A stretch of DNA of 64,000 nt from Escherichia phage Av-05, in the sequence record KM190144; one strand, given 5' to 3'. Below are positions 13,571-63,450 of the stretch, piece by piece. Position numbers and translations under genes: made by a program. The notes beneath the pieces were generated by a model. The model was given only the letters and a program-made list of their open reading frames with translations. It had not been told where the DNA came from and searched no databases. Every line of letters starts with the position of its first letter. The first letter of the stretch is position 1.

Positions 13571-13574
13571 GTTT

Positions 13575-15008: not shown

Positions 15009-15073
15009 TTGTTATCTCCTTGATGAAGCTGGGCAACTAACCTATCACAGATATGCCAAATATTTGTTAATGT

Positions 15074-45407: not shown

Positions 45408-45825
45408 ATTAAAAGTTTTCGACATGTTAGTGGATATTCACTTCCTGTCTCTGGGGTGTGCTATAGATATATCATGGAAGAGTTGGAACGGTGGCAAATT
45501 TATTTTTGGGTCGCTTAGACAAGATACCACAAAATATTTTGTAAGTTGCACAAGGAAATCTCTTGAAATACAGAAATTTTCTGGGTCTGGTTGGAAAACA
45601 TTAATTGACCCCAGCATGACACTTGACCCACAAAATATCTCAGAGAGTGAAAAACTCTTGGTAAATATCCTCCCAGGACTGACCGATTTTGAGAGGGAAC
45701 TCTACGAAGTGGCTGGGAATGTGGCTAAAATGTGGGCAGATGACCACACACAAGAAACGGATGCAAGGGAGTACGTGAGGAAGTTTCTCCGCAGACATCT
45801 CGATTGGGATACAACAGAAGAGTAA
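45391..45825 (+). CDS. hypothetical protein
   Basis: 144-codon ORF. Confidence 0.3.
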   Translation: MNTQNKLKVFDMLVDIHFLSLGCAIDISWKSWNGGKFIFGSLRQDTTKYFVSCTRKSLEIQKFSGSGWKTLIDPSMTLDPQNISESEKLLVNILPGLTDFERELYEVAGNVAKMWADDHTQETDAREYVRKFLRRHLDWDTTEE

Positions 45826-45928
45826 AATTTAACCACACAGGGAGGCTAACGCACGTAGTCTCCCATATGTCCCCATTTCAGGGACTATGTTATAGTAGTC
45901 CTAACAAAACAACAAAATGGAACCTAAA

Positions 45929-46192
45929 ATGAAAACTTTCAACGAATTCATCTCAGAATCGTCTGGTGTGAAAATTAACAAAGCGGTCAATCAGGTTATT
46001 GCTGATATTCTTAATTTGTATAACATTGACTTAACTCCGCATATCACGCTTGGTAACAAACGAAACTTTTTCATATTTAACACATCCGAACTTGACGAAA
46101 ATCAGTTCAATAACATTCAACGTTTTGCGAATGATAAAGGTCTTCGACATGAGCCTGGTGGCTATAAAAAATACGCAATATATTTGAAATAA
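45929..46192 (+). CDS. internal-protein-like small protein
   Basis: N-terminus MKTFNEFISES resembles the T4 internal protein capsid-targeting sequence. Confidence 0.4.
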   Translation: MKTFNEFISESSGVKINKAVNQVIADILNLYNIDLTPHITLGNKRNFFIFNTSELDENQFNNIQRFANDKGLRHEPGGYKKYAIYLK

Positions 46193-46252
46193 AGGTATAC
46201 AAGCCTATAGGACTATGTTATAGTAGTCCTATTAAAACATGAGGAGAATATT

Positions 46253-46558
46253 ATGAAATTAGGCGAAACCAACCGAATTGGTCTTTTTACAATATTTGCA
46301 TCACCTTTTTACGCAGCTCTTTCTGTTGCAGTATTACAAAAGGCTTACGATATGGATGGTGTTCCTGGTTTTGTATTCTTATCACCATTTTTATTATTCG
46401 TCGGGGCTTTGTTATTATATGCCACGACTAGTTTTGACCATAACGTCTGGGTTAATTATAAATGTAAATTGTCTGAAGAAGAACATGCAGAAGCTCGTAA
46501 AAAAGCTATTGAATCTACCAATCTAGAAAATTTCATTAAAGAATGCCGAGGAAAATAA
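46253..46558 (+). CDS. membrane protein
   Basis: hydrophobic helices. Confidence 0.3.
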   Translation: MKLGETNRIGLFTIFASPFYAALSVAVLQKAYDMDGVPGFVFLSPFLLFVGALLLYATTSFDHNVWVNYKCKLSEEEHAEARKKAIESTNLENFIKECRGK

Positions 46559-46559
46559 T

Positions 46560-47246
46560 ATGAATAGTTCTAAAGTGTTTAATAGTCAAGCTCGTGCAGT
46601 AGGTGGTTTTGCTCATAACGTACAAAATGACCAAATCAAAAATGAACCAATGTTCTTTAACTGTGATTTGAGTTTTGCTTGGGATAACGGTGGTCCAATT
46701 ACTCGTAGCTTTATCCAAAATCTCCCTGACGATTGGAAAGGCTCGGATGTAGTATTTGATTCACGAGTCCACATGCTGATGCCTGGTTGGTATCCTGCTA
46801 TTCCTGGATATCACCATGATGATGTTCCTCGCCCTGATATTCCAGTCGGCCAACACTTTATTACTGCAGGACAACCTGACTATGATAACCCTCGTTACCA
46901 TTCTGAACATATTCTTGGTCTTGTTAACGCTGATGTGTGTCCTACTCATTTTGCAACAGGAACTGCAGAGTTCAGTCAGATTCCTGATGGCGAACTTATC
47001 TATCGCCAGTGGCACAAAGAAGTCCTCGAAAAAATTGAAAAAGGTGAACTAGAGAAATGGGAAGCTCCGGACCGTACTCTTCTTCAGTTTGATTGGCAAA
47101 CATGGCACACTGGTTCTCGTGCAATTAGTAATGGATGGCGTTGGTTCGGACGTGTATCTCGTAATACAGACCGAGTTAAAAAGATTACTAATGAAATTCG
47201 TGTCAATGCTCAAGTTTATCTGGAATTCCCTATGGAAGGCTGGTAA
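46560..47246 (+). CDS. hypothetical protein
   Basis: 228-codon ORF, His/Asp/Trp-rich. Confidence 0.35.
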   Translation: MNSSKVFNSQARAVGGFAHNVQNDQIKNEPMFFNCDLSFAWDNGGPITRSFIQNLPDDWKGSDVVFDSRVHMLMPGWYPAIPGYHHDDVPRPDIPVGQHFITAGQPDYDNPRYHSEHILGLVNADVCPTHFATGTAEFSQIPDGELIYRQWHKEVLEKIEKGELEKWEAPDRTLLQFDWQTWHTGSRAISNGWRWFGRVSRNTDRVKKITNEIRVNAQVYLEFPMEGW

Positions 47247-47737
47247 TGATTAACAAAACATATTGGTCTAATATAGACGACGGTAATGAAGGTATTTCGT
47301 ACTATTCAGTAGATTGGACAGGATGTCCATCCTACTTAGTGAAACGTATTTGTCAAGAATTTAAAATCGACCAGCCAGCAGGTATTATCGTGAACAGATA
47401 CATTAATGGATATCAACCTATCGATGAAGTAATACGAACAACTCAAGCTGAGCTTGAAAAGTTTTTCAATAAGTGCCAATGGATAACAGGATGGATTATA
47501 TTTGTACCGTCGGTATGGTTTTTTAGTACTAAAGTAAGTGCCTTTGCCATACCAGATATTATCGCTATATTATTAGCATCTACTATCGTAAGTATTATTG
47601 GTGGTATTATTGGTGGAGGTACTATAGGCATCATTATTAATCTTGTTAAAAGTAGTTTACAGGAACGTAAAGACAAGATAAAGGCCAAGAATAATGAAGT
47701 TGAACGTTTTATTACCGAATGCAGGAATTTGAGATGA
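47246..47737 (+). CDS. membrane protein
   Basis: hydrophobic segment with GG(I/T)IG repeats. Confidence 0.3.
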   Translation: MINKTYWSNIDDGNEGISYYSVDWTGCPSYLVKRICQEFKIDQPAGIIVNRYINGYQPIDEVIRTTQAELEKFFNKCQWITGWIIFVPSVWFFSTKVSAFAIPDIIAILLASTIVSIIGGIIGGGTIGIIINLVKSSLQERKDKIKAKNNEVERFITECRNLR

Positions 47738-47970
47738 GTATAGCAATTTACATTAAATCAGAATCATGTGATAGTTATCTGTACACATATGATAAAGATG
47801 TGTCAGAAGAAAAAATCAAAGACGATCTTAATATGGACCTTGATATGTTCTGTCCTATTGCAGATTACAAACTTGCGGTTTCTAATAGTGAAAGTCCATC
47901 TAAAGAAACGCGCATTGAAGAATTTATGTCCGAATTAATGGCCAAATCATGGGACCGAGATGATGAGTAA
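47719..47970 (+). CDS. hypothetical protein
   Basis: 83-codon ORF. Confidence 0.3.
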   Translation: MQEFEMSIAIYIKSESCDSYLYTYDKDVSEEKIKDDLNMDLDMFCPIADYKLAVSNSESPSKETRIEEFMSELMAKSWDRDDE

Positions 47971-48418
47971 GAAAAATAAAGTGAAAGAACTATCAGCCGG
48001 TATTATCTTCATGACAAAAGATAAAGAGTTATTCATGGGCCGTGTAACTGGTTCTCGTCCTAAAGGTGCATTAGCTCATCGGTGGGATATTCCTAAAGGC
48101 CGTGTCGAGCCAGGTGAATCTCCTATTGAAGCCGCTATTCGTGAATGCGAAGAAGAAACTGGGTTTACACAATATGACCCTGCCTTCCTGAAAGACCTAG
48201 GCGAACATCATTACTCAGACAATAAGAATATTCATCTATTCCAATATACCATCCCTGTAGAGCACGAGCAATTCAGAAACAGTGTTTGTAATTCCTATCA
48301 TACATTCCCAGACGGACGACAGATTCCTGAATTTGATGCATTCGCTTTAATTAAACCTTCTCAATGGGAATATGTAATGGGCAAATCATTATATAAGGTG
48401 CTCACTACCATCCTATAA
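47960..48418 (+). CDS. nudE: Nudix hydrolase
   Basis: Nudix box GRVEPGESPIEAAIRECEEETG; immediately upstream of e as in T4. Confidence 0.6.
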   Translation: MMSKKNKVKELSAGIIFMTKDKELFMGRVTGSRPKGALAHRWDIPKGRVEPGESPIEAAIRECEEETGFTQYDPAFLKDLGEHHYSDNKNIHLFQYTIPVEHEQFRNSVCNSYHTFPDGRQIPEFDAFALIKPSQWEYVMGKSLYKVLTTIL

Positions 48419-48425
48419 GTAATAA

Positions 48426-48451
48426 ATACCTCCTATAAACGTAGGAGGTAT
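48426..48451 (+). promoter_or_regulatory. SD-sequestering hairpin with late-promoter-like TATAAACG in the loop
   Basis: perfect inverted repeat ATACCTCCTA/TAGGAGGTAT; 3' arm is the ribosome-binding site of e. Confidence 0.5.
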
Positions 48452-48452
48452 T

Positions 48453-48941
48453 ATGAATATATTTGAAATGCTTCGTAATGACGAAGGTCTTAGACTGACT
48501 TTATACAAAGACACCGAAGGCTTTTGGACGATTGGCATAGGCCATTTAGTAACAAAGAACCCGTCTTTAGCCGTAGCTAAAGCTGAACTTGACAGAATGA
48601 TCGGTCGTAAATGCAACGGTACAATTACCCTTGATGAGGCTGAAAAGCTATTTAATGAAGACGTCGATAAAGCCGTTCGCGGAATCTTGGGTAATGCTAA
48701 ACTTAAACCGGTATATGATTCTTTAGATGCGGTTCGTCGATGTGCATTGGTCAATATGGTCTTTCAAATGGGTGTAGCAGGCGTTGCTGGTTTTACTAAT
48801 TCTCTTCGTATGCTTCAACAGAAACGTTGGGATGAAGCGGCAGTAAATCTAGCCCAATCTAAATGGTATCGTCAGACACCTAATCGCGCGAAACGCGTAA
48901 TCTCAACATTTAAAACAGGAACTTGGAAAGCGTATATATGA
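48453..48941 (+). CDS. e: T4-type lysozyme (endolysin)
   Basis: about 80 percent identical by eye to T4 lysozyme (MNIFEMLR...EGLRL...YKDTEG...TIGIGHL...). Confidence 0.9.
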
Positions 48942-49219
48942 AAACATACAGTGAATTTTTATCAGAATCTATTCTTAACGAAGCTACTGACACATTTGCA
49001 ACTAAGCTAGGTGCAGCTTTAGTTGAAGCTGAAAGTCTATTAGCACGTATTTCTGAACTTGCCAGTAAGATAGATACTCGCAAATTTGAGCGCACCAGTG
49101 ATATCGTTAAGCTTGAAGCACTGCTGCGTATGTGCGATAAACCGGAAGAAATCGCTAAGAACGGCTCGTTAATGAAACAACGTCTTGAAAAATATATTTC
49201 AGGCGCTTCAGAAAAATAG
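48938..49219 (+). CDS. internal-protein-like protein
   Basis: N-terminus [11 protein letters not shown]; ATG overlaps the e stop (ATGA). Confidence 0.5.
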
Positions 49220-49220
49220 T

Positions 49221-49250
49221 GTTTACTTCCTCCAAGGGTTTTGATACTAT
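49221..49250 (+). promoter_or_regulatory. T4-early-type promoter
   Basis: -35 GTTTAC, 17-18 nt spacer, -10 TACTAT; spacer is inverted-repeat partner of the denV SD. Confidence 0.5.
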
Positions 49251-49277
49251 ACATCTATCAACTACTTGGAGGAAATT

Positions 49278-49691
49278 ATGACTCGTATCAATTTAACACT
49301 TGTTTCTGAACTGACCGACCAACATCTTATGGCTGAGTATCGTGAATTACCTCGTGTATTCGGTGCAGTCCGTAAACATGTTCAAAATGGTAAACGTGTA
49401 AAAGATTTTAAAATCTCTCCAACATTTATTTTAGGCACGGGCCACGTAACATTCTTTTACGACAAACTCGAATTTTTACGTTTACGTCAAATCGAGCTAA
49501 TAGCTGAATGTTTGAAACGTGGTTTCAAAATCAAGGACACGACAGTCCAGGATATTTCCGACATTCCTGTAGAATTTCGTAATAATTATGTCCCGTCCGA
49601 AGCGTCCATTGCGATAAGTCAAGCACGCTTAGATGAAAAAATTGCTCAACGTCCCACTTGGTACAAATACTATGGTAAATCAATTTACTAA
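49278..49691 (+). CDS. denV: endonuclease V (pyrimidine-dimer glycosylase)
   Basis: near-identical by eye to T4 endonuclease V ([12 protein letters not shown]...[16 protein letters not shown]...). Confidence 0.9.
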
Positions 49692-49697
49692 GGAAAA

Positions 49698-49958
49698 ATG
49701 AAAATGTATCAAGAATTTATCACTGAAGCGGATGCCAAAGACCCCAAATTTAAAGTTAAAGCTTTCATTGGTGATGCGGAAGACTTTGGCTCATTAAAAC
49801 GTAATGGGTATTCTTTCTTAGGTGGCGATGGTAAAGAAATCAACACCTATGCAAAACGTAGTGAAATTGCTTATGTTGTAGCAAGTCCTAAAGTAGATGC
49901 TGATGATATTGGATACGATTTTAACAACTTCGGAATTATTTCTGGCGGTAAAGCTTAA
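49698..49958 (+). CDS. internal-protein-like protein
   Basis: N-terminus MKMYQEFITEA. Confidence 0.5.
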   Translation: MKMYQEFITEADAKDPKFKVKAFIGDAEDFGSLKRNGYSFLGGDGKEINTYAKRSEIAYVVASPKVDADDIGYDFNNFGIISGGKA

Positions 49959-49961
49959 ATT

Positions 49962-49991
49962 GTTTACGCTTAAGTATTAATATGGTATAAT
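49962..49991 (+). promoter_or_regulatory. T4-early-type promoter
   Basis: -35 GTTTAC, about 18 nt spacer, -10 TATAAT. Confidence 0.45.
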
Positions 49992-50021
49992 TACTCTATC
50001 AAAACAAACAAGGAAACAAAA

Positions 50022-50600
50022 ATGAAAACATATAAAGAATTTATCGCCGAGGCCTTTGCAGGAAAAGCTCAAGGCATTAATAAGGACGAGTGGAATTATC
50101 GTGGCGGAAATGGTTTTGACCCTAAAACTGCTCCACTTGAACGATATCTAGCCACAAAAGCTTCTGATTTTAAAGCCTTCGCTTGGGAAGGACTACGCTG
50201 GCGTAACGATCTAAATATTGAAGTTGACGGACTTAAATTTGCTCATATTGAAGATGTTGTTGCTAGTAACTTAGACGCAGCTTTTGTTAAAGCCGACAGT
50301 GACCTTCGTCGCTGGAATTTAAAACTGTTCTCTAAACAAAAAGGCCCGAAGTTTGTGCCTAAAGCAGGTAAATGGGTCATTGATAATAAATTGGCTAAAG
50401 CTGTCAACTACGCTGGTCTTGAATTTGCCAAGCATAAATCATCATGGAAAGGTCTTGATGCAATGACTTTCCGTAAAGAATTTGCCGATGTTATGGCTAA
50501 AGGTGGCTTTAAGGCAGAAATAGATACCTCTAAAGGTACGTTTAAAGACGCTAATGTTCAGTACGCTTACGCCGTCGCTAATGCGGCCCGTGGTAATTAA
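50022..50600 (+). CDS. internal-protein-like protein
   Basis: N-terminus MKTYKEFIAEA matches the T4 capsid-targeting sequence. Confidence 0.5.
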   Translation: MKTYKEFIAEAFAGKAQGINKDEWNYRGGNGFDPKTAPLERYLATKASDFKAFAWEGLRWRNDLNIEVDGLKFAHIEDVVASNLDAAFVKADSDLRRWNLKLFSKQKGPKFVPKAGKWVIDNKLAKAVNYAGLEFAKHKSSWKGLDAMTFRKEFADVMAKGGFKAEIDTSKGTFKDANVQYAYAVANAARGN

Positions 50601-50629
50601 TAAGGCCTATTTACATTTAAAGGAAACAT

Positions 50630-50959
50630 ATGAAAACGTATCAAGAATTTATCACTGAAGTTACATTATCTGCGGAACAGAAAGCTGCTATCGAAGAAGG
50701 TAAAAATCCCAAAGTAACATATAAAGTAAATGGTAAAGGCGTTTTTGATGGCTTGGTTCAAGACCCTGAATTGAAAAAAGCTCTTTCTAAAACTAATGCA
50801 TACTTTGCTCCTAAATTTAACGCAGCTGGTGTACTTATTGGATTGGATGTATTCAACTCTAAAGGTGTTCTATCTAATGCCTTTGGTTATGCCGCTAACA
50901 AAATTACCAAAGCCGCATGGGAATCCAATACCAAACAAGCTCAAAAGCCTAGAGTATAA
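50630..50959 (+). CDS. internal-protein-like protein
   Basis: N-terminus MKTYQEFITEV. Confidence 0.5.
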   Translation: MKTYQEFITEVTLSAEQKAAIEEGKNPKVTYKVNGKGVFDGLVQDPELKKALSKTNAYFAPKFNAAGVLIGLDVFNSKGVLSNAFGYAANKITKAAWESNTKQAQKPRV

Positions 50960-51133
50960 TTCTTGCCTAATAAAGGGAAACGCAACCTCTCCTCATGAAC
51001 GTCGAGTCCTCTGAGTGATGTACCTTTTCCAACCTGTAATAAGGTCGAGCCCAAGTGCGGTAATGGGTTTACATAGCGAGTCGAAGGACCTAACATGTGC
51101 CATGGAATGGCCCCAACCTAAAAGAGAAACTAA

Positions 51134-51673
51134 ATGAGAACATTTTTAACCGGACCTTATCTATCCCTGATGAATGCTTTTACACACCATTCTGATGCTA
51201 GAGTAGAAGAAATTTGTAAGAACGGTTATGCCCCACCATTTGAAGACGTACTCAAGCAGTACTGTACACTTCGTTTAGACGGCGGCAGACAATCAGGTAA
51301 ATCGACCGCAGTAACTAATTTTGCTGTTAATTGGCTGTATGATGGCGGAACAGTTATTGTTCTTTCTAATACTTCAGCTTATTCTAAAATTTCTGCTGGC
51401 AACATTAAAAAAGAATTTTCTCGTTATTCTAGCGACGATATTCGATTCCGTTTATTTACTGATTCTGTTCGTAGTTTTATTGGCAATGAAGGTTCTAAAT
51501 TCCGTGGATTAACGCTTTCTCGTATTCTATACATAATTGACGAGCCTATTAAAGCTCCTGATATGGATAAGATTTACAATGTACATATTAAAACAGTCCA
51601 ACACTGTTGCAAAAGCAAATATTGCAACGGCGGTAATGCTCGTCCTCAATTTTTTGTGATTGGAATGCAATGA
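51134..51673 (+). CDS. P-loop NTPase-like protein
   Basis: Walker A GGRQSGKST and Walker B-like ILYIIDEP. Confidence 0.4.
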   Translation: MRTFLTGPYLSLMNAFTHHSDARVEEICKNGYAPPFEDVLKQYCTLRLDGGRQSGKSTAVTNFAVNWLYDGGTVIVLSNTSAYSKISAGNIKKEFSRYSSDDIRFRLFTDSVRSFIGNEGSKFRGLTLSRILYIIDEPIKAPDMDKIYNVHIKTVQHCCKSKYCNGGNARPQFFVIGMQ

Positions 51674-51978
51674 TGACCACTATTGAAGTTTTTGAGTATT
51701 GTTATAACAGCCCAGTATGCAATAAAAGGGCTCTTGTAGAAAATTACGAGATTTACCATTTTAAACCTAAACGATATCGTTTGACTAAAGGTCCGTTCGC
51801 AGGGCAGCAGGTTCTTTGTACTGCTCCTAATGCACGACTGATGACTAGTATTCCGCATTTCAAAATGGAATTTATTGATGGGCCATTTAAGGGATTAATC
51901 ACTCAAAGTTTAATGGCGTTTAATTCCGACCCATTTTTGATTAAAGAAAAAACTTGGATAAATTTATTTTCTAATTGA
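51670..51978 (+). CDS. hypothetical protein
   Basis: 102-codon ORF. Confidence 0.3.
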   Translation: MMTTIEVFEYCYNSPVCNKRALVENYEIYHFKPKRYRLTKGPFAGQQVLCTAPNARLMTSIPHFKMEFIDGPFKGLITQSLMAFNSDPFLIKEKTWINLFSN

Positions 51979-51984
51979 GGTTAT

Positions 51985-52347
51985 ATGAAAGCATATCAAA
52001 TTCTTGAAGGTACACATAAAGGCACTATTTATTTTGAAGACGGTACTCAAGCCCGGATTATTGTCTCTAAGACTTTTAAAGAAGACGCTATTGTAGACCC
52101 GGAAATTTTCTACGGTTTGAATGCCCGTGAAATTGAAATTGAACATCAACCTAAAGTTAAAATTGAAGGTGGTCAACATCTGAACGTTAACGTTCTGCGT
52201 CGGGAAACTCTGGAAGATGCAGTTAAGCATCCGGAAAAATATCCGCAGCTGACCATCCGTGTATCCGGTTATGCAGTTCGCTTTAACTCTCTGACTCCGG
52301 AACAGCAGCGCGACGTTATCGCTCGTACCTTTACTGAGAGTCTATAA
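51985..52347 (+). CDS. autonomous glycyl-radical cofactor (GrcA/YfiD-like; T4 Y06I-type)
   Basis: C-terminal 60 aa with RVSGYAVRF glycyl-radical motif appears identical to E. coli GrcA; codon usage shifts mid-gene. Confidence 0.7.
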
Positions 52348-52571
52348 TGGCTAAATTGATTATAGAAGGGTCTGAAGATGTTTTAAAATGTTTTGCCGCC
52401 TGGTTTAGTTGCTCAGGCGAGCAATCATTCACTGAAGCATTTAGAATGGGTGATATTACTGGAAACTATCCGACAACTGATATCATTGTACGTGGATATG
52501 GTATTAATGAGCCTATCCAATTGGTCGAATATGACCTTGCCACCGATGAGGAAATTCCTTATGTCGATTGA
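52347..52571 (+). CDS. hypothetical protein
   Basis: 74-codon ORF. Confidence 0.3.
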   Translation: MAKLIIEGSEDVLKCFAAWFSCSGEQSFTEAFRMGDITGNYPTTDIIVRGYGINEPIQLVEYDLATDEEIPYVD

Positions 52572-52827
52572 AGATATTAAAGGCTACAAGCCACATACCG
52601 ACGATAAAATAGGTAAAGTGAACGCTATTAAAGATGCAGAAGTCCGTCTTGGATTGATGTTTGATGCTCTGATTGAAGAAGCCTATATCTTGAAAGAAAA
52701 TGAAACAGAGCATCAAACCAAAGAAGATATGGATGCAGTGCAGGCTCTTAAGTACGCTAAGCAACATCTAAAAGAAGCCAGCATGTGGGCCTGTCGTGCA
52801 GTATTTCGTCCTGAGGAAAAATACTAA
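52560..52827 (+). CDS. hypothetical protein
   Basis: start at ATG 52560 overlapping the upstream gene end. Confidence 0.3.
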
Positions 52828-53042
52828 TGGCTTCTACTATTACTGGGTTATTGGACTTCCAGGAAAAGGTCAACAAAATTTGTAGTGAATACTTAAAGTA
52901 TCTTGAAGAAGACCTTGAAGATTGTAAGGAAGAAGGCGAAGAAGATTATGCTGACCAGCGTCGTCGCCAAATCGAAGAGATGAGACATTTCGCCGATATG
53001 GTATCTAAAGAATCTTGGACTTTAACTCCATTTTATCAATAA
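52827..53042 (+). CDS. hypothetical protein
   Basis: 71-codon ORF, acidic. Confidence 0.3.
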   Translation: MASTITGLLDFQEKVNKICSEYLKYLEEDLEDCKEEGEEDYADQRRRQIEEMRHFADMVSKESWTLTPFYQ

Positions 53043-53046
53043 AGTA

Positions 53047-53075
53047 GTTTACTTCTCCTCTAGTTGTGTTACTAT
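53047..53075 (+). promoter_or_regulatory. T4-early-type promoter
   Basis: -35 GTTTAC, 17 nt spacer, -10 TACTAT; spacer TTCTCCTCTAGTTG is the perfect inverted repeat of CAACTAGAGGAGAA at the regB SD. Confidence 0.55.
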
Positions 53076-53103
53076 AGACCTGTCAACTAGAGGAGAAATA
53101 AAA

Positions 53104-53562
53104 ATGACTATCAATTCGGAAGTTTTTATCCGTCGCAATAAACTCCGTCGAATCTTTGAAACGGAGTTTCGTCAAATCAATGCCGGTATAAAAGATGCTG
53201 CAAAGTCTCTTGGACTACCAGGCTTTCATATCAAGTATTCTCAACATCTCTTAGATCGTGCCATCCAGAGAGAAATAGATGAGAATTACGTTTTTGAATT
53301 ATTTCGTAAAGTAAAAAATCACGTTAAAGAAGTTGCAGAATTTTTATCAATGCCGGCACGTCCAGATGTTGATGAAGATTTTGTCGAAGGTGTCGAATAC
53401 CGCCCAGGCCGTTTAGAAATAACTGATGGAAATCTTTGGTTAGGCCTTACAGTTTGTCGCGAAAATCCGGCATTCAAAATGAAGACTCTTCAATGTAGAA
53501 TGGCTATTATTAACAATAAACGACTACCAGGAAAAGCTTCTAAAGCAGTGATTAAAATCTAG
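53104..53562 (+). CDS. regB: RegB endoribonuclease
   Basis: close match by eye to T4 RegB (MTIN.EVFIRRNKLRR...YSQHLLDRAIQREIDE...LQCRMAIIN..RLPGKASKAVIK). Confidence 0.85.
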   Translation: MTINSEVFIRRNKLRRIFETEFRQINAGIKDAAKSLGLPGFHIKYSQHLLDRAIQREIDENYVFELFRKVKNHVKEVAEFLSMPARPDVDEDFVEGVEYRPGRLEITDGNLWLGLTVCRENPAFKMKTLQCRMAIINNKRLPGKASKAVIKI

Positions 53563-53570
53563 AGGTAAAC

Positions 53571-54113
53571 ATGAGAAAAGCACTACTCGCTGGTCTATTT
53601 GCTCTTTCATTATCAGCACATAGCTCCGAGCATACTTTTAGTAATGTCCAACTCGATAACTTGAATTATGCTTATCAGTTTGGGGAACAATTTTCTAAGG
53701 ACGGAAAATTTAAAACGCATGAAAATATGCATAAGAAAGGACTTGGATACATAATGGCCGCAATACTATGGCAAGAATCATCTGCCGGTATTAATCTTAA
53801 AGATAAGAAAGGTCACCATGCGTATGGAATGTTCCAAAACTATCTACCAACAATGAGGGCAAGAATTAACCAGCTTGGTTATAATATGACTGATGCCCAA
53901 ATTAAGAAAATGCTATCTAAGCGGTCTAATTCAGCCAGATGGGCTTATATCGAATTTTCTTATTGGTTAAATATACATAACGGGGATATAAGAAAAGCTA
54001 TATCCTCATATAATGCGGGATGGAAGACAAGTGCTGGAAGTAAATATGCTTCTGAAGTCCTAGAAAAGGCTAATTACCTTAAATCAAATAAACTACTGGA
54101 AATAAAAGAATGA
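53571..54113 (+). CDS. secreted lytic-transglycosylase-like protein (T4 vs.1-like)
   Basis: signal peptide; position after regB. Confidence 0.45.
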   Translation: MRKALLAGLFALSLSAHSSEHTFSNVQLDNLNYAYQFGEQFSKDGKFKTHENMHKKGLGYIMAAILWQESSAGINLKDKKGHHAYGMFQNYLPTMRARINQLGYNMTDAQIKKMLSKRSNSARWAYIEFSYWLNIHNGDIRKAISSYNAGWKTSAGSKYASEVLEKANYLKSNKLLEIKE

Positions 54114-54457
54114 CCAAAATGTTGGCTTTAATAGTTAGCTTGGTTTCATTTAACGCTCTTGCTAATACTACATATACTGATGTAACGGAGTATACAAACA
54201 GAACGGCGTCTGATTACTGTGGTAAAAGTCAAGAGTGTAAAGTAGATTTTTCACAAAAATTGTTATATGCGTATAAAGACGGAGAAAAAGATGGGGCGTC
54301 TAGTAGGTTCAAGGCGTCTACCTTAATTAAACGATATCATAAAAAATGGCAAATATTAGAATGCTCGGTGGCGGAACCTAAAGATAAGGCAGCATGCAAT
54401 TCTATGGTGGACCGTCTAGTTGACTCTTATACTAGAGGACTTGTAGCAAGTGATTAA
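54110..54457 (+). CDS. secreted protein
   Basis: signal peptide MTKMLALIVSLVSFNALA. Confidence 0.35.
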   Translation: MTKMLALIVSLVSFNALANTTYTDVTEYTNRTASDYCGKSQECKVDFSQKLLYAYKDGEKDGASSRFKASTLIKRYHKKWQILECSVAEPKDKAACNSMVDRLVDSYTRGLVASD

Positions 54458-54917
54458 AAACTATATCAAGGGCGATATTGTCGCCCTGTTTTCTAAAGGT
54501 AATAATATTGCTCATGGGTGCAATTGTTTTCATACAATGGGCGCCGGTGTAGCAGGTCAATTGGCAAAGGCTTATCCAAAAATTCTGGAAGCCGATAAAC
54601 TTCAAACTGAATTCGGAGACGAGTCTAAACTTGGGACTTATTCGGTTTATGAAAAATATTTTAAGACTCATAAAGCTTATTGCTTTAATCTTTATACTCA
54701 GTTTGAGCCGGGACCTAATTTTGAGTACTCTGCTTTAATGAATTGTATAATAGAATTAAATGAATTCGGAAAAAATAAGATAACAAAGCCTGTGATTTAC
54801 ATGCCAAGAATTGGAGCAGGTATAGGTGGTGGAAACTGGGATATCATTGAAGAAATTCTTGATACATATTCCACTAAACTAGAAATTGTGATTGTTGATT
54901 GGGAACCATTGTTATGA
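54450..54917 (+). CDS. macro-domain protein
   Basis: NIAHGCNCFHTMGAGVAGQLAKAYP and IGAGIGGGNW motifs; paralog of 37696-38217. Confidence 0.55.
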   Translation: MIKNYIKGDIVALFSKGNNIAHGCNCFHTMGAGVAGQLAKAYPKILEADKLQTEFGDESKLGTYSVYEKYFKTHKAYCFNLYTQFEPGPNFEYSALMNCIIELNEFGKNKITKPVIYMPRIGAGIGGGNWDIIEEILDTYSTKLEIVIVDWEPLL

Positions 54918-55126
54918 ATGTGCATTATCCTCACCCGTATGACCCAAAGAATAAAGCAGTTATTATTCGTGAATGGGAAGAAATTCGTCAGACTAAGTGT
55001 CCTATTAACACCCCTCACGATGTTGAACGTCGTTATCATGGACGCTTTATGGAATATACCTTTATTGATAAGAAAGGTCGTAAAAAGCATGTCGAAGAAT
55101 ATTGCATGCAGGTCAAATGGTTATGA
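54899..55126 (+). CDS. small conserved protein (paralog of 41007-41222)
   Basis: shared HPYDPKNKAVIIREWEE...EYTFIDKKGRKKHVEEY. Confidence 0.4.
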   Translation: MGTIVMNVHYPHPYDPKNKAVIIREWEEIRQTKCPINTPHDVERRYHGRFMEYTFIDKKGRKKHVEEYCMQVKWL

Positions 55127-55329
55127 GCCAAACAAAAATTCTTACAGGTGCTAAATGCGAAAAATGCGAATGGCCTGTAGTTTTTGCTTTATGCAATGAC
55201 GAAATGGCTTGTGATTTTGATTATTGGTGTTACTGTTCGAACAAAGGTTGTAGCAATCATAAAGGTGAAGGGTTTTACTCAGGATTTTACCCTTACCCAG
55301 ATTTCGTTAAAGAAGGTGAACCTAAATGA
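55102..55329 (+). CDS. Cys-rich small protein
   Basis: 75 aa with CxxC pairs. Confidence 0.3.
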   Translation: MHAGQMVMSQTKILTGAKCEKCEWPVVFALCNDEMACDFDYWCYCSNKGCSNHKGEGFYSGFYPYPDFVKEGEPK

Positions 55330-55508
55330 AATTGACTAAAGAAGAGAAAACTAAACTGTTCGAACTTATCCATGACCTATTGGATGAGCAAGCAGCCACC
55401 AATGCGTACGATGAATATGCTCCTTTAACAGACGAAGAATATCAAGCATTGATGGAATCATTTGACAGGAAAGAACAAGAACTCATTGACTACGTGAATT
55501 CACTATAA
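55326..55508 (+). CDS. hypothetical protein
   Basis: 60-codon ORF. Confidence 0.3.
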   Translation: MKLTKEEKTKLFELIHDLLDEQAATNAYDEYAPLTDEEYQALMESFDRKEQELIDYVNSL

Positions 55509-55517
55509 GGGACTCTT

Positions 55518-56099
55518 ATGGCTAGTTTAATTTTTACCTATGCCGCTATGAACGCTGGTAAGTCTGCTTCATTACTTACTGCCGCACATAACTATAAAGA
55601 ACGTGGCATGGGTGTATTAGTTCTTAAACCGGCTATTGATACTCGCGATTCAAAAGGTGAAATAGTCTCTCGTATTGGTATTCGTCAGGATGCCAATATA
55701 ATTACAAAAGACATGGATATCTTTGAATTTTATAAATGGGCTGCAGCACAAAAGGATATTCACTGTGTATTTGTTGACGAAGCTCAGTTCTTAACTACTG
55801 AAAAGGTGTATCAACTTAGTCGTATTGTTGACGTATACAATGTGCCGGTAATGGCATACGGACTACGAACAGATTTTAAAGGTAATCTATTTGAAGGTTC
55901 TCAAGCATTAATGGCTATTGCCGATAAGCTTGTTGAACTTAAAGGTGTCTGTCATTGCGGTAAAAAGGCCACAATGGTAGCTAGAGTCACGGAAGACGGA
56001 CTTCCAATTACAGATGGCAGTCAAATTGAAATTGGTGATACCGATAGATACGTGTCATTATGCCGGAAGCATTGGAATGATTTGACAGGGTTGTTATAA
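55518..56099 (+). CDS. tk: thymidine kinase
   Basis: MASLIFTYAAMNAGKS P-loop, VFVDEAQF, C-terminal CHCG...C zinc motif; close to T4 Tk by eye. Confidence 0.9.
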   Translation: MASLIFTYAAMNAGKSASLLTAAHNYKERGMGVLVLKPAIDTRDSKGEIVSRIGIRQDANIITKDMDIFEFYKWAAAQKDIHCVFVDEAQFLTTEKVYQLSRIVDVYNVPVMAYGLRTDFKGNLFEGSQALMAIADKLVELKGVCHCGKKATMVARVTEDGLPITDGSQIEIGDTDRYVSLCRKHWNDLTGLL

Positions 56100-56126
56100 A
56101 TACTAATATCTAACCAAGAGGTATAT

Positions 56127-56339
56127 ATGCAGCAATTAAACGAAAGACAACTTCGTAATCTTACTGTAACCCAATTGGACGAAATCCGAAGAGAATTAGG
56201 ACATTCTATTTCTCATTTAAACGAGGATATTCGTCAAACTGGTTCTAAAGCTGATTATACACGCAAGCGCAAGCTGGAAAAATACCTCGCAGATGTTAAG
56301 GCCGTTCAAAGGCGAAAAATAAATACTGGCCAAAATTAA
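56127..56339 (+). CDS. hypothetical protein
   Basis: 70-codon ORF, basic. Confidence 0.3.
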
Positions 56340-56351
56340 CAGGAGGCCTAT

Positions 56352-56654
56352 ATGGCCTTAAGAGCGATAGCTGTCATGGCGATGCTGGGGTTTTTTGCAG
56401 CAACAACTCCTATTGTTGGCACTGCATATGTTGACCCGTACTTTGATAACTTTATGGAATCAGGGATTAAAAACGTATATACTTTGTTCGAAATTCAAAA
56501 TGTTGAGAATTCTGAAAAATTTTATAAGTATATGGCAAAGCATTACAAAAATAGCCCCTGTGATGATGCATTTGAATGTCATGAACAAGGCATAAAAACT
56601 GCCAGAAAATTTGCTGAGTTCATGAAAATAAAATTAGAGCCTACATCTATCTAA
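56352..56654 (+). CDS. secreted protein
   Basis: signal peptide MALRAIAVMAMLGFFAA. Confidence 0.35.
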   Translation: MALRAIAVMAMLGFFAATTPIVGTAYVDPYFDNFMESGIKNVYTLFEIQNVENSEKFYKYMAKHYKNSPCDDAFECHEQGIKTARKFAEFMKIKLEPTSI

Positions 56655-56660
56655 TTTACT

Positions 56661-56690
56661 AGCCCCTTCCGAAAGGTTGGGGCTTTTTTG
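56661..56690 (+). terminator. rho-independent terminator
   Basis: AGCCCC-ttccgaaaggtt-GGGGCT then TTTTTG. Confidence 0.55.
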
Positions 56691-56699
56691 CATCTATCA

Positions 56700-56728
56700 G
56701 TTTACTTCTCCTCAGGTTGTGTTATAGT
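56700..56728 (+). promoter_or_regulatory. T4-early-type promoter
   Basis: -35 GTTTAC, 17 nt spacer, -10 TATAGT; spacer TTCTCCTC is complementary to the downstream SD GAGGAGAA. Confidence 0.5.
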
Positions 56729-56755
56729 AGACCTTACTTACTAGAGGAGAACGTT

Positions 56756-56935
56756 ATGTCACGTAAAGAAAAAATTTCTAAGTTAATGTTTTTGATTGAA
56801 GAGTACGCTAACGCTGTATCCGATTGGGAAAATGCCCATGGGTGTGAAGACGGTGATATCGATATCAATAAGGCAATGAAAAAGATGGCTGATACGCACA
56901 CTGAATTGCAAATGTATGTTAACGAGATTATGTGA
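56756..56935 (+). CDS. hypothetical protein
   Basis: ATG at 56756 with GAGGAG SD. Confidence 0.35.
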   Translation: MSRKEKISKLMFLIEEYANAVSDWENAHGCEDGDIDINKAMKKMADTHTELQMYVNEIM

Positions 56936-56942
56936 GGATATT

Positions 56943-57149
56943 ATGCTTTACGATTATACTGGAAAATCTGAAGACGGTGTACTTGAACTTTTACCTGAAA
57001 GCGCTGAAGATGATGATATGGTGGCGATGTTTTGTAAAAATGGTCCTGGGGATAAGGGATGGATTTATCTTCGACAAGAAAATGACTTAATTGTTTTGGA
57101 CCCTAAACAAGTTGAAGAACTTTATCAACATTTAAAACACAATCGGTAG
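56943..57149 (+). CDS. hypothetical protein
   Basis: ATG at 56943 with GAGGAT SD, overlaps the upstream stop. Confidence 0.3.
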   Translation: MLYDYTGKSEDGVLELLPESAEDDDMVAMFCKNGPGDKGWIYLRQENDLIVLDPKQVEELYQHLKHNR

Positions 57150-57180
57150 TTTACATCTTGGTAGGACTAAAAAAAAAATT

Positions 57181-57690
57181 TTAAGATGCTTCTAATTCAG
57201 ATTTAAGATCAGCAATCATCTTTTCAAAGGATTTGTTCTTAGTCAGTGTAACACCTTTAGAAAGTGCAAACTCAACTAATCTATCTTTACTACCTTTTTT
57301 ATCAGCTTCATCATTCAGAGACATTGCTTCCTCTAAAATCAGATCAATAGATAGATTTTCTTTGTCATCCTTTTTATCTTGCACTTCTACAATCTTGGCA
57401 TCAACTGCCTTACCCATACTATTTGGATTAGGAATATCTTTGTTAAAGAATACAATATAAGAACCCATACGAATAGTAGAGTGCTGTGCATCAACATCAA
57501 GACCAGACATCTCAGCAAGAGCAGTGAAAAACTCAACAGTGTTTCTGAATGCCTTGTGTTGTGTCCCCACACATAAACCATTCAAAGGCAGTCTTGCAGA
57601 TACCGCTGCATTCAATTGTGGTGCATATGCTCCGAAAAACTTAAACAGTTCCACTTTATTAGGGAAAATACGATAATTTTGATTTGCCAT
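57181..57690 (-). CDS. hypothetical protein (head-module associated?)
   Basis: 169-codon ORF downstream of the major capsid gene. Confidence 0.35.
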   Translation of the reverse strand: MANQNYRIFPNKVELFKFFGAYAPQLNAAVSARLPLNGLCVGTQHKAFRNTVEFFTALAEMSGLDVDAQHSTIRMGSYIVFFNKDIPNPNSMGKAVDAKIVEVQDKKDDKENLSIDLILEEAMSLNDEADKKGSKDRLVEFALSKGVTLTKNKSFEKMIADLKSELEAS

Positions 57691-57764
57691 AAAATCTCCT
57701 TTTATTCCTTAGTAAAAACCACTTGACAACACAGGATAAGTGGCTATTATTAAGGTCAGAATGT

Positions 57765-57794
57765 GAAAAAGGGGAGGTGATAATTCACCTCCCC
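57765..57794 (-). terminator. rho-independent terminator after major capsid gene
   Basis: 10-bp stem GGGGAGGTGA/TCACCTCCCC, followed on the minus strand by a U-run. Confidence 0.55.
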
Positions 57795-57820
57795 TCATTA
57801 GAGGTAGCATTTAAGCTATC

Positions 57821-58834
57821 TTATGCGAAAGTACCAGTAGAACGTACAACCAGTTCAGGACGGGTGTTAACCGTCAGGAAGGAAGTTTCAGATTCAACTT
57901 TCTCTTCACGCAGATATGCAGAAGATTTGTACCACAGATACAGTTCTTCAGCTACAGTGTTTGCTTCACGAACATCATCTGCCGGAGCATAATGGATCTG
58001 GAACATATCATCAATACCTTGCGGCAGGATGTATGCTTCACCATCTGGGATATATCCAGAGATGTCTTCAATGTAGGTTACGTTCTTATGAACAAACATA
58101 CGGTTGTTGGCATTCTCAGAACCCATACCCAGACGACGACGCAGCGGTTCTTGGGTAGAAGAGTAATACTGGTAAGCGTTCATGATCAGCGGGTGGGCGA
58201 TCAGAGCAGAGAACCATTTACGAGAAGCCAGAACAATGATATTATAGTTATTGCCGTTATCACCTGCATTGTCGATGATGTATGCACGAGCGTCTTTCTC
58301 AATCAGATCAGACGGGTCAACTGCAACATCTGTGAAGTTGATATTGGCAGTATGCTGGGTAACTCCCCACTCAGTAAAGTAGTTGTACTGTGCGGTCGGA
58401 TCTTGTGGAGACCATGATTTACCCATGATTGCCTGAACCATTGCTTTTTCTTTCAGTTGTTCATGAGAAACGCGAATACGCTTAACTACGCGAGCAACTA
58501 CGTCTTCAACAGTTCTCGGAGCGTCCGTAGTGAAGTATTTACGGAAGTTCTGAACATCTGCCGCAGTGATCTGACGATCCAGAGGGAAGAACGGAATGTT
58601 GAAGTTCTTGATTTGGGCTTTTTCACTACCCACATAGTTACGTTCTCCACCACGACGACGTGCAGGAATATCCGCAACAATTTCGTCAACACGCTCAACA
58701 CGAGCAATTGTGGTTTCACCATGGTAGGCGGTGAACAGATCCATGTTGGTAATCAGGCGATACTGACGTGGAACAAGTTCCAGTGCTGCGCCAAGGTTTA
58801 CGATTTGAAAGTCGTTAGTCTGTACTGCTGCCAT
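57821..58834 (-). CDS. major capsid protein (lambda gpE-like)
   Basis: 337 aa; several segments parallel lambda gpE; highly expressed-type codon usage. Confidence 0.6.
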   Translation of the reverse strand: MAAVQTNDFQIVNLGAALELVPRQYRLITNMDLFTAYHGETTIARVERVDEIVADIPARRRGGERNYVGSEKAQIKNFNIPFFPLDRQITAADVQNFRKYFTTDAPRTVEDVVARVVKRIRVSHEQLKEKAMVQAIMGKSWSPQDPTAQYNYFTEWGVTQHTANINFTDVAVDPSDLIEKDARAYIIDNAGDNGNNYNIIVLASRKWFSALIAHPLIMNAYQYYSSTQEPLRRRLGMGSENANNRMFVHKNVTYIEDISGYIPDGEAYILPQGIDDMFQIHYAPADDVREANTVAEELYLWYKSSAYLREEKVESETSFLTVNTRPELVVRSTGTFA

Positions 58835-58857
58835 TTATAAATTCTCCTTGATGCAAA

Positions 58858-59280
58858 TTAGCTGATAGCCGTTACTTTAATATCTTCAGAACCATCGAAA
58901 TATTTATCGGTGATTTTCAGACCTCTTGCCTCAAGAGCTTTAATAGCAGTCTCGTCAATTCCTGTGGAACCATCAGAGAACACAATCTTGGACTTATTCA
59001 GAGTAAGGCCACGAACAGCAACAACAAAATTATATTTGGTTCCTACTTTGAACGGGGTAACAGGTTCGTATGCAGGTACAAGGTCATGGTCAACCAGAAC
59101 ACCATAAGCCTGAGCAGCATCACCAGATGCAGCTAAAGTACCGTCTTCTTTAACGATCATACCTGCTTTCATACCTGCTGCGTACTGAATCTCCATTTCC
59201 TTGAAGCTATAGCCTTGGTCAGAAGAATCAACTTTACCCAGTACAATGTCAGAGTAGAAACCTTGAATTGGATTAGCCAT
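58858..59280 (-). CDS. head decoration protein (gpD-like)
   Basis: 140 aa between scaffold and capsid genes. Confidence 0.45.
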   Translation of the reverse strand: MANPIQGFYSDIVLGKVDSSDQGYSFKEMEIQYAAGMKAGMIVKEDGTLAASGDAAQAYGVLVDHDLVPAYEPVTPFKVGTKYNFVVAVRGLTLNKSKIVFSDGSTGIDETAIKALEARGLKITDKYFDGSEDIKVTAIS

Positions 59281-59298
59281 TTATTTAATCTCCTCGAA

Positions 59299-60300
59299 TT
59301 ACGCTTTCATTGCAGCCGCTTCGCGTGCACGGGCGCGAGCTTTTTCTACGTTGGCTTTCAGAATATCTTCAGCAGACTTATTAATGTCGTCTGTAGTAGC
59401 TTCAGCACCGGAACCATGTTCAGCGGTAGCAAATTCTTTTTTCACAGTCTTAACTTCTTCTTCAAGTTCCTTAATACGAGCCTGTGCTTTTTCCAGAATA
59501 GCCACCACAGGAGCATTAGCTTTCTCGATAATAAAGTTAGCCAGTGCTTCATGATCAGAGTCAGCAGCGAAAGTGAAAGTTTTTGCTTTATTCAGAGCTT
59601 CTTTCTTTTCCACTTCAACGGCAGCTTTGATAATTTCATCAGCTTTAGCAGCTTTGGCTTCAGCTTCTTCTAATTTTTTAACCAGATCCAGATATTCCTG
59701 AGATTTGGTCACATCAACATTATTAGACACTGAGGTCTCCTCTTTTTTCTTGGATTTATCAACTACAGGTTTTGAACCTGCTTCTTTGACGACCCCAGTC
59801 ACCTGGAGATCTTTATCATCACCCTCTACGAAAGTGACTCCTAATTCTGCAACACCTTTTTCAAACAATTGTTGTAATTTTAGCAACTCATATTGTTTAG
59901 CGAGATCTAATTCTTTACCTTCGTGAGCAGCTTTAGCAATTGTTATTGCTTGCACGCGTTCTTCAAGAAATTCTTGATGTTGTGCATTCCATGCCACAAT
60001 AAATTCATCATCAGGGTTTTGCGCCGCATCGTATTCAAGTTCAGTTTCAAAACCAAGAAGTTTTGCCAGCAGTTCTGCATCATCATGCCACATGTAGAAG
60101 AATCTACGCAGAAATTCTTCAAAGCTCATTGTAACAGTTACTTGCTGGAGGGCTTTGATAACGTCTTTAGTAAGCTGCTCAGGTTTAAGATCAGACTTCA
60201 TAAGAAGTGATACTGGTCTTAAATTAGCAGAATACCCTTGAAGCTCATGACACAGTGCAATACCCTTCTCCTTAATGGCTTTGGCCTTTACAATTGTCAT
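59299..60300 (-). CDS. scaffolding protein
   Basis: 333 aa, Ala/Glu/Lys-rich coiled coil; between protease and decoration genes. Confidence 0.5.
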   Translation of the reverse strand: MTIVKAKAIKEKGIALCHELQGYSANLRPVSLLMKSDLKPEQLTKDVIKALQQVTVTMSFEEFLRRFFYMWHDDAELLAKLLGFETELEYDAAQNPDDEFIVAWNAQHQEFLEERVQAITIAKAAHEGKELDLAKQYELLKLQQLFEKGVAELGVTFVEGDDKDLQVTGVVKEAGSKPVVDKSKKKEETSVSNNVDVTKSQEYLDLVKKLEEAEAKAAKADEIIKAAVEVEKKEALNKAKTFTFAADSDHEALANFIIEKANAPVVAILEKAQARIKELEEEVKTVKKEFATAEHGSGAEATTDDINKSAEDILKANVEKARARAREAAAMKA

Positions 60301-60986
60301 TCGTCCTCTTCCTCTGTTTCATCTAGATAACCCAGACATTCGATACCGAAATCAACATCTGTTATTTCTCCTGTTGCTGTGTCCACACGCCCAGAGCACT
60401 GGATGCTTAAACCACCAACAACATTTGCTTTTTTCAAATCCCACAAAGCAGGATCATTATACTTAACCTTGGCTACCCATGTTCCTGCTTTAATTATCTG
60501 TTCCGTCCCAATGACCACAACATCCAGTTCTTCTTGAATCCAAGTTTTTTCAATAGTGAATGCATCAGTCTCGCTAAGATGGAATAAATTTTCTTTCACC
60601 AAACCAGCAGCGAGTGCCTTATCGTAGGATTCTTTTGCCTTTACTATCGTTTCAGGAGACATCCACTCTCCATGGGCATCCTTAGTGTTTGGCTCATAAA
60701 TAACCTCATAAGAGATCATTTGTTCCGCATCTTTTTGGATATTAACTACAGATGTTTCTTTATTAAGACTCTTTTTAAGATTTAGAGATAAAACTCTCTC
60801 AGAAGCCTTTTCTACAGAAATTTCTGGAGAATGGCCTGAGGCAATCAGGCCATTAGCGATATTCAGTATCTTGCTCTTTTGAACAAGAGACAGATCAGAT
60901 ACTGATGAAGGAAGGTCTTTAATGCTTTTAAATTTCATTATTTCCCCATTAACAGTTATTTTAACATCGTTCTTTTTCTTTTGCAA
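60297..60986 (-). CDS. prohead protease
   Basis: 229 aa between portal and scaffold; acidic C-terminus. Confidence 0.45.
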   Translation of the reverse strand: MQKKKNDVKITVNGEIMKFKSIKDLPSSVSDLSLVQKSKILNIANGLIASGHSPEISVEKASERVLSLNLKKSLNKETSVVNIQKDAEQMISYEVIYEPNTKDAHGEWMSPETIVKAKESYDKALAAGLVKENLFHLSETDAFTIEKTWIQEELDVVVIGTEQIIKAGTWVAKVKYNDPALWDLKKANVVGGLSIQCSGRVDTATGEITDVDFGIECLGYLDETEEEDE

Positions 60987-61007
60987 GTTATTTCAGAAGG
61001 TTGAGTG

Positions 61008-62549: not shown

Positions 62550-62564
62550 GAATTATCCCCTCTG

Positions 62565-63350: not shown

Positions 63351-63398
63351 GGGAGGATTATCGAATCCTTGTATTCAAGGTTGGACGCAACGCCAACC

Positions 63399-63450
63399 CC
63401 CGCACCGCTACGTGCTGCTGCATGTCACCAGCAGCACGTAGTGGTGCGGG
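63399..63450. repeat. 22-bp palindrome with 8-nt loop (one G-T pair)
   Basis: CCCGCACCGCTACGTGCTGCTG / CAGCAGCACGTAGTGGTGCGGG; each arm continues into sequence resembling the 3' end of pol intron 2. Confidence 0.8.

Follow-up and report, generated by a model that had tools for sequence, protein, structure and literature searches.

Internal-protein genes with capsid-targeting leaders in the Escherichia phage Av-05 record: very probably standard Mosigvirus genes placed beside a foreign head module by chimeric assembly

The genome record of Escherichia phage Av-05 (KM190144) holds, in the stretch of 64,000 nucleotides (nt) analysed here and referred to as the window, five small genes whose products begin with the capsid-targeting sequence (CTS) of the internal proteins (Ips) of phage T4. 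Very probably these are the standard ip genes of a Mosigvirus (RB69 group), encoding injected anti-restriction proteins, and they lie beside a head module that is not of the T4 type only as a result of the chimeric assembly of the Av-05 sequence. Sequence comparisons indicate that the record (KM190144 / NC_025830) appears to be a chimeric, rearranged and incomplete assembly, in which ~11.3 kb of Mosigvirus DNA, collapsed across a promoter-hairpin repeat, is joined between two non-adjacent Avunavirus contigs. The sequence features, the homologies and the locus of the five genes are directly observed and are described first.

All six frames of the full window were scanned for the motif MK[TM][YF][QKSNE]EF[IL][ASTV]E. 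There are exactly five matches, each the start of a plus-strand open reading frame, and together they span positions 45929 to 50959; the number expected by chance from the six-frame residue frequencies is 5e-7 and there were no matches in 200 shuffles. The CTS-type N-termini that the initial annotation had noticed on small genes are confirmed by this count. The genes are listed below with the predicted sizes of their mature products and, where given, the isoelectric points (pI).

45929 to 46192, plus strand: CTS gene 1, starting MKTFNEFISE; 87 amino acids, mature product of ~77 amino acids, 8.9 kDa, pI 9.4; allele of the ipI locus, Ip9 family
48938 to 49219, plus strand: CTS gene 2; 93 amino acids, mature product of 83; directly after e
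49698 to 49958, plus strand: CTS gene 3, starting MKMYQEFITE; 86 amino acids, mature product of 76, pI 5.2; directly after denV
50022 to 50600, plus strand: IPIII orthologue, starting MKTYKEFIAE; 192 amino acids, mature product of 182, 20.3 kDa, pI 9.6
50630 to 50959, plus strand: CTS gene 5, starting MKTYQEFITE; 109 amino acids, mature product of 99, pI 9.7; candidate internal protein

In all five, the (I/L)-x-E cleavage motif of the prohead protease gp21, as defined in PMC12991175 and PMC9026906, ends at residue 10, and the predicted mature proteins, at 8-20 kDa, have the sizes of T4 IPI, IPII and IPIII. Three of the mature forms are basic (pI 9.4-9.7) and two are neutral or acidic (pI 6.3 and 5.2). 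Pairwise, the 30 nt that encode the motif are identical at 20-29 of 30 positions and the following 60 nt are at the background level of 14-24 of 60. The motif is kept as a peptide, with synonymous changes, on unrelated cargos; BLASTP alignments among the five proteins are confined to residues 1 to ~21, which bears out the earlier description of the genes as otherwise unrelated.

A PHROG family is matched by every one of the five proteins, and four of these families are labelled internal head or internal virion protein. The same four cargos have homology to a named or labelled Ip (IPIII, Ip9, phrog_3499 and phrog_2667), the exception being that encoded at 50630, and with that exception labels of 'internal head protein' or 'internal virion protein' are already present in Av-05, phiC120 and the PHROGs. 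The three genes that are neither IPIII nor of the Ip9 type have only the 10-residue CTS in common with known Ips. The closest relationship is that of the 50022 protein, which aligns over its full length with T4 IPIII (91% identity over 192 residues, E 1.5e-134 by BLASTP) and matches phrog_5341 'internal virion protein' (3.9e-117). The 45929 protein matches phrog_7673 'internal head protein' (1.9e-48), shows ~70% identity with Ip9 from both RB15 (Q38376) and IME08, and has an exact record as AII27715.1, 'internal head protein [Escherichia phage Av-05]'. Matches to 'internal head protein' families were also obtained for the products of 48938 (phrog_3499, 1.2e-46), identical to phiC120 gp237 'internal head protein', and of 49698 (phrog_2667, 1e-21), the counterpart of which is phiC120 gp235 'internal head protein'. 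Their identification as T4-type internal proteins therefore stands, based on the CTS starts, the IPIII and Ip9 identities and the PHROG labels. A near-consensus early-type promoter of the form GTTTAC...N17...TATAAT lies directly upstream of 50022 (~49965-50000) and of no other gene among the five.

The 50630 protein belongs to phrog_3966, a family of unknown function, and is matched in 89 phage records; 13 of the 14 rows sampled read 'hypothetical protein' or are unannotated. Homologues with 37-39% identity are encoded in the same place after denV in the Dhakavirus phages PSD9 and ESCO10, and start MKTYQQFITE or MKTYKQFITE. This family is missing from internal-protein annotation, and in no sampled record is it so labelled. 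The ESCO10 homologue carries the label 'RNA polymerase ADP-ribosylase', and this looks like a mis-annotation.

Searches of Pfam and NCBIfam gave no family for any of the five proteins, and sequence searches of the PDB returned no significant match for any of them, the IPIII orthologue included. Structure prediction of the cargos, a check named beforehand, did not make their function readable, as the two AlphaFold2 (AF2) models resemble no solved structure. In the model of the Ip9-like 45929 protein (pLDDT 85.9), a compact alpha/beta cargo follows a disordered stretch made up of residues 1-12; with this model and that of the 50630 protein (pLDDT 76.7), Foldseek searches of the PDB gave no hit with E < 0.01 and none with a TM-score > 0.5. 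Likeness to the fold of IPI* (T4 Ip1) was also not found, as BLASTP aligns only the CTS, no PDB sequence match is significant and the two models gave no Foldseek hit below that E value.

Two further proteins resemble the Ip9-like protein. The Kagunavirus siphovirus BCH953P1 (OZ035805, 2519-2740) encodes a protein of 73 amino acids that is ~50% identical to the Ip9-like cargo and is without the CTS leader, and this leaderless homologue fits a history in which the CTS was fused onto a pre-existing small phage protein. The 'ip7' protein of Escherichia phage OLB35 has, as its last ~35 residues, a sequence near-identical to the Ip9-like protein, with an unrelated N-terminal half that has no CTS. 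Sharing of this kind suggests recombination within the cargo-coding sequence at the polymorphic ipI locus.

At two loci of T-even phages, ipI and e-denV, the arrays of CTS genes are variable; from what is cited of Repoila et al. 1994 in PMC3012670, such arrays have been known since that survey of T-even ip loci, from which the name Ip9 also stems. The Ips are regarded as diverse defence proteins with only the CTS in common (PMC3012670). In T4, the first 10 residues of IPIII suffice to package foreign proteins in the head, the leader being removed by gp21; a head holds ~360-370 copies each of IPI, IPII and IPIII, and these leave it together with the DNA on ejection (PMC9026906). The T4 IP genes are non-essential; polyheads build up in IPIII-minus and in IP-null mutants, and at low salt the IPs bind to DNA (PMC9026906). 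Silas et al. 2025 (PMC12373910) reported that T4 Ip1, Ip2 and Ip3 inhibit GmrSD type IV restriction enzymes, a different one in each case and without cross-protection, the target of Ip3 being the GmrS1/GmrSD2 system of ECOR17. They count at least 10 Ips known from related phages and recognised by the signal sequence, and propose that the genes of both Ip loci all target GmrSD variants; ten ip genes screened against five further GmrSD systems were negative. The sequences of the five window proteins were not found in the Silas et al. supplements. The proposal that the cargos are candidate injected anti-defence factors is thus the current published view (PMC3012670, PMC12373910) and established knowledge.

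By this precedent, each of the five proteins would be made with the 10-residue N-terminal CTS, which would give it affinity for the gp22 scaffolding core and build it into the prohead. Cleavage by gp21 after Glu10 of (I/L)-x-E (residues 8-10) would then leave a mature protein of 8-20 kDa, which would stay beside the DNA in the head at a copy number probably in the hundreds. Ejected with the DNA into the next host, the cargo would be able to act ahead of any phage gene expression and would inhibit DNA-targeting defences at once. In a real Mosigvirus, packaging would be by the phage's own T4-type head machinery. For the IPIII orthologue, given its 91% identity, the most likely target is a two-gene GmrS/GmrSD (GmrS1/GmrSD2-type) type IV restriction system, as for T4 Ip3, and the other four cargos would, by analogy, most likely block other GmrSD-type variants or similar DNA-targeting defences. 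Work on the T4 internal-protein/restriction system reportedly includes that of Bair, Rifat and Black in 2007.

At the ip genes, the window DNA is 99.7-99.98% identical to the ip loci of phiE142 (57B-ipI-tRNA type) and phiC120 (e-denV-vs.8 type), and 60 phage records cover at least 80% of window positions 45800-51100. Two genes of known type lie among the CTS genes.

48453 to 48941, plus strand: e, T4-type lysozyme, identical to phiC120 gp238 'glycoside hydrolase family protein'
49278 to 49691, plus strand: denV, endonuclease V, corresponding to phiC120 gp236 'endonuclease V N-glycosylase UV repair enzyme'

The interleaving with e and denV that had been pointed out is correct insofar as both genes lie between CTS genes, but the gene at 45929 belongs to the separate ipI locus. 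Its distance from the others in the window is only 2.3 kb, because the sequence jumps, at 46206-46240, over ~7-9 kb that no natural Mosigvirus lacks. When natural Mosigviruses (phiC120, phiE142, APCEc01, ESh15 and others) are compared, the e-denV part is 99.98% identical to that of phiC120; natural members keep the 7-9 kb between the ipI and e loci and the T4 head genes, whereas the window has neither. Nor is the locus unusually expanded, as had been thought, since phiC120 carries at least seven CTS genes: the same four e-denV genes, the IPI orthologue gp262, and gp255 and gp256. The last two, with the e.x genes, sit in the ~9 kb of phiC120 that the window misses; gp255 (MKTYAEFLTE, 187 amino acids) and gp256 (MKSYAEFLTE, 154 amino acids) are located at 163103 and 163693 on the minus strand, and both are annotated as hypothetical. 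There are no transfer RNAs in the 64-kb window. The RefSeq entry for phiC120 (NC_055718.1), given as a 'circular' sequence of 186,570 bp, has the same 17.1 kb at both ends (30-17164 and 169359-186493) with 100% identity, and the true phiC120 genome is ~169 kb.

As in the window, T4 IPII and IPIII start with a CTS, MKTYQEFIAE, with (I/L)-x-E at residue 10, the mature sizes are the same, and the genes occupy the same two loci. Unlike the T4 system, four of the window cargos have no detectable similarity to T4 IPI or IPII, the ipI locus has an Ip9-type allele in place of IPI, and the gene order is e-ip-denV-ip-ipIII-ip rather than e-ipIII-ipII-denV. In its general layout the locus agrees with those of T4 and Dhakavirus, one Dhakavirus having the order e-ipIII-denV-CTS-CTS.

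The Mosigvirus DNA in the window and the junctions that bound and interrupt it are as follows.

45886 to 57169, plus strand: Mosigvirus (T4-like) segment of ~11.3 kb, with ipI, e.x-nudE-e-ip-denV-ip, vs, regB, tk and genes further downstream
45880 to 45903, plus strand: left junction, a truncated PeSL-type repeat, matching TAGGACTATGTTATAGTAGTCCTA with 2 mismatches
46208 to 46231, plus strand: internal junction, a complete PeSL-type repeat (exact 24-mer) at which ~7-9 kb of Mosigvirus sequence is skipped
57162 to 57169, plus strand: right junction, where the first repeat arm TAGGACTA is joined to a backbone A/T run

Window positions 46206-57169 are 99.97-99.99% identical to phiC120 157315-146353, and the ipI locus of phiE142 is matched by 45883-46240 at 99.7%; identity to the block is 95-98% in other Mosigviruses, versus 99.98% for phiC120. 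The remainder (1-45885 and 57169-64000) is 94-97% identical to genomes of Avunavirus, a genus of the Vequintavirinae, such as 18-1-2. Like Av-05, phiC120 was isolated in Mexico on E. coli O157:H7, apparently by the same laboratory. The Av-05 genome announcement (PMC4463512) describes de novo assembly from 36-base reads, and ORFs resembling those of PVP-SE1 yet a top DNA similarity of 97% to RB69.

All three junctions (45885/6, 46206-46240 and 57169) are inside one repeat of 24-26 nt, TAGGACTATGTTATAGTAGTCCTA, a TTTACA-N17-TATAGT promoter with an embedded 10-bp hairpin (-13.6 kcal/mol, z -2.5). Exact copies are present in phiC120 at 146337, 157290 and 166064, in the 86 kb examined, and the Mosigvirus block is a circular permutation, with ends that overlap by GGACTA within the repeat. 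The repeat resembles the PeSL elements of T4-type phages (Arbiol et al. 2010; Comeau et al. 2014) in its AGGA...TCCT hairpin and in its position just upstream of a ribosome-binding site and start codon, and, as a predicted promoter, it matches the TTTACW-N17-TAYWAT and AGNA-loop-TCNT description of the T4/PST group (PMC4122927). PeSL motifs excise and integrate cassettes in T4-type phages (PMC4122927); unlike these, the repeat here was most likely an assembly trap for 36-base reads, rather than an in vivo recombination site.

On the left, backbone homology stops at 45885 (...CAGGGAC), where five independent Avunavirus sequences go on with ATGGGTATGTCCCC. Four independent contigs match the window up to exactly 45885 and then depart from it into other backbone sequence, one of them, a scaffold of 131.7 kb, continuing for 9.5 kb in backbone past this site. 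On the right, three contigs with an identical capsid protein match the window down to exactly 57169 and then enter the next backbone gene, so that seven independent Avunavirus assemblies, four at the left site and three at the right, are without the block. The left flank ends after a homologue of PVP-SE1 gp215 and the right flank begins, in the opposite orientation, at a homologue of gp069; in PVP-SE1, these two genes are ~79 kb apart on one strand. A search of 50,697 phage genomes found none of the three junctions in another record. An exact-match scan of IMG/VR for the junctions was also negative, although as the positive control matched one contig only this is weak evidence.

Three of four short-read Avunavirus assemblies end within ~170 nt past the gene for a protein of 144 amino acids (two within 90 nt), as do GenBank scaffolds of the 18-1-2 type. 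Tandem GTCCCC-N-GGGGAC hairpins are present at this break site (window 45826-45885; 11856-11945 in the assemblies), and the recurrent break suggests a repeat or a physical genome end. In a metagenome contig (ENA ERZ27280808 k141_184012, 11097-15014), NiFe hydrogenase genes of the E. coli type directly adjoin Avunavirus head and tail-fibre genes; the contig is probably chimeric as well.

Beyond the right junction lie the head genes that had raised the question of how T4-type internal proteins could be packaged.

57181 to 63365, minus strand: rV5/PVP-SE1-like head module, encoding a protein of 169 amino acids, capsid, decoration, scaffold-like protein, S78 protease, portal and the C-terminal part of the terminase large subunit (TerL)
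63429 to 63794, plus strand: inverted terL fragment, from the backbone terminase large subunit

The module is collinear with PVP-SE1 gp069-gp075, with 66-91% protein identity (tblastn), and its Pfam matches are Phage_cap_E, Peptidase_S78_2 (XkdF-type protease) and Portal_Mu. A true lambda-like head, with the gpE, gpD, gpB and gpC set, was considered and rejected, as only the capsid matches (Phage_cap_E), next to a portal of the Mu type and an S78 protease. The heads of Vequintavirinae (rV5, PVP-SE1) have no equivalent of gp21 or gp22 known to read a T4 CTS. Neither component of the T4 prohead core (gp22 scaffold, gp21 protease) is encoded in the 64-kb window, an absence that we attribute to the chimeric assembly; phiC120 has the full set, encoding gp20, gp67, gp68, gp21, gp22, gp23 and gp24. 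The puzzle of packaging by a 'lambda-like head module' thus very probably dissolves, with the ip genes assigned to one phage and the head module to another, an Avunavirus (Vequintavirinae). The terminase gene is itself disrupted in the record: residues 234-499 of PVP-SE1 TerL align to 63365-62568 on the minus strand, and residues 118-233 to 63448-63795 on the plus strand. In three independent Avunavirus contigs this stretch is contiguous and in a single orientation and, by this comparison, the Av-05 record was mis-assembled here a second time, independently of the first error.

Several points weigh against a chimeric assembly of ordinary, packaged Mosigvirus ip genes. The same ~10 kb of Av-05 has been described in PMC5885020 as 'T4 genes from rI to e.2', with horizontal transfer considered probable, and shared homology at the left and right junctions extends over no more than 4-6 nt, so that a simple read-overlap error does not explain either. 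The 200 nt upstream of each of the five CTS genes contain no canonical T4 late promoter TATAAATA, and a late expression route for prohead loading is not evident from the sequence. Packaging, processing and injection of the five proteins are predicted from the CTS and by analogy with T4. The targets of the four cargos other than IPIII could lie outside GmrSD, given the negative results of ten ip genes when screened with a further five GmrSD systems. It could be argued that an rV5-like Avunavirus captured ~11 kb of Mosigvirus genes by real horizontal transfer, perhaps as a repeat-bounded mini-circle, an event that the statement of PMC5885020 that a transfer of almost 10 kb probably occurred in Av-05 would support, as would the mobility of cassettes bounded by PeSL-type repeats (PMC4122927), the circularly permuted block with its GGACTA end overlap and the microhomology at the junctions. 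With flanks ~79 kb apart in PVP-SE1 and mutually inverted, a simple insertion is excluded; the block is absent at both sites in seven independent assemblies, the junctions recur nowhere else in the 50,697 phage genomes, and the essential terL is broken by an inversion in the same record. Reads of only 36 bases, and 99.98% identity to a phage from the same country when other Mosigviruses have 95-98%, also argue for an artefact, and T-even phages degrade the cytosine-containing DNA of co-infecting phages, a further point against transfer. A real insertion was therefore rejected on the non-adjacent, inverted flanks and the independent genomes that lack the block. We regard such a capture as highly improbable, and give just as little credence to its corollary that the T4-type ip genes are now useless, or are packaged in some other way into a lambda-gpE-type capsid. 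That the block is a real, recent, repeat-bounded cassette in a viable rV5-like phage, with CTS proteins that are packaged by an unfamiliar route or provide anti-defence without being packaged, is less probable still.

The function assigned to the genes has also to be weighed against two other possibilities. The shared N-terminus might be a mere translation-initiation or leader feature, with some of the four non-IPIII proteins acting intracellularly and unpackaged. These four are assigned to the head from their sequence, there is no canonical late promoter directly upstream, and both the cargo of the Kagunavirus siphovirus and the 'ip7' variant, with its Ip9-like C-terminal half, dispense with the CTS. 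In T4, however, the first 10 residues of IPIII are by themselves enough to package foreign proteins (PMC9026906). The leader is conserved at the peptide level, through synonymous changes, and always ends in the gp21 motif, the design recurs in T4, Mosigvirus and Dhakavirus, and related families were named Ip by their signal sequence decades ago; a mere leader is very unlikely. Somewhat less unlikely, but still improbable, is that the cargos are mainly structural or DNA-condensing components of the head, involved in charge neutralisation or core assembly, and not anti-defence proteins. Three of the five mature forms are indeed basic (pI 9.4-9.7), and the polyheads of T4 IPIII-minus and IP-null mutants and the DNA binding at low salt (PMC9026906) would accord with such a role. 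It is harder to reconcile with the dispensability of the IP genes in T4, with mature forms that are neutral or acidic (pI 6.3 and 5.2) in the remaining two, with the specific GmrSD targets of all three T4 Ips, and with the extreme turnover of cargos at fixed loci, which fits an arms race. Injected anti-restriction proteins of a Mosigvirus, present in this record through chimeric assembly, thus remain by far the most probable identity of the five.

The internal-protein biology represented here is already known; it is textbook T-even biology, and the functional reading has recently been confirmed by the inhibition of GmrSD. If the cassette were real, a phage whose capsid is of the lambda-gpE type and whose protease is S78 would be expressing T4-type CTS proteins. 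As Av-05 is the founding member of the genus Avunavirus, its record needs a curation warning, and the published 'horizontal transfer' inferred from Av-05 should be treated as unproven. Four of the five injected-protein candidates are orphan entries, and are reasonable choices for screens against GmrSD variants and other defences.

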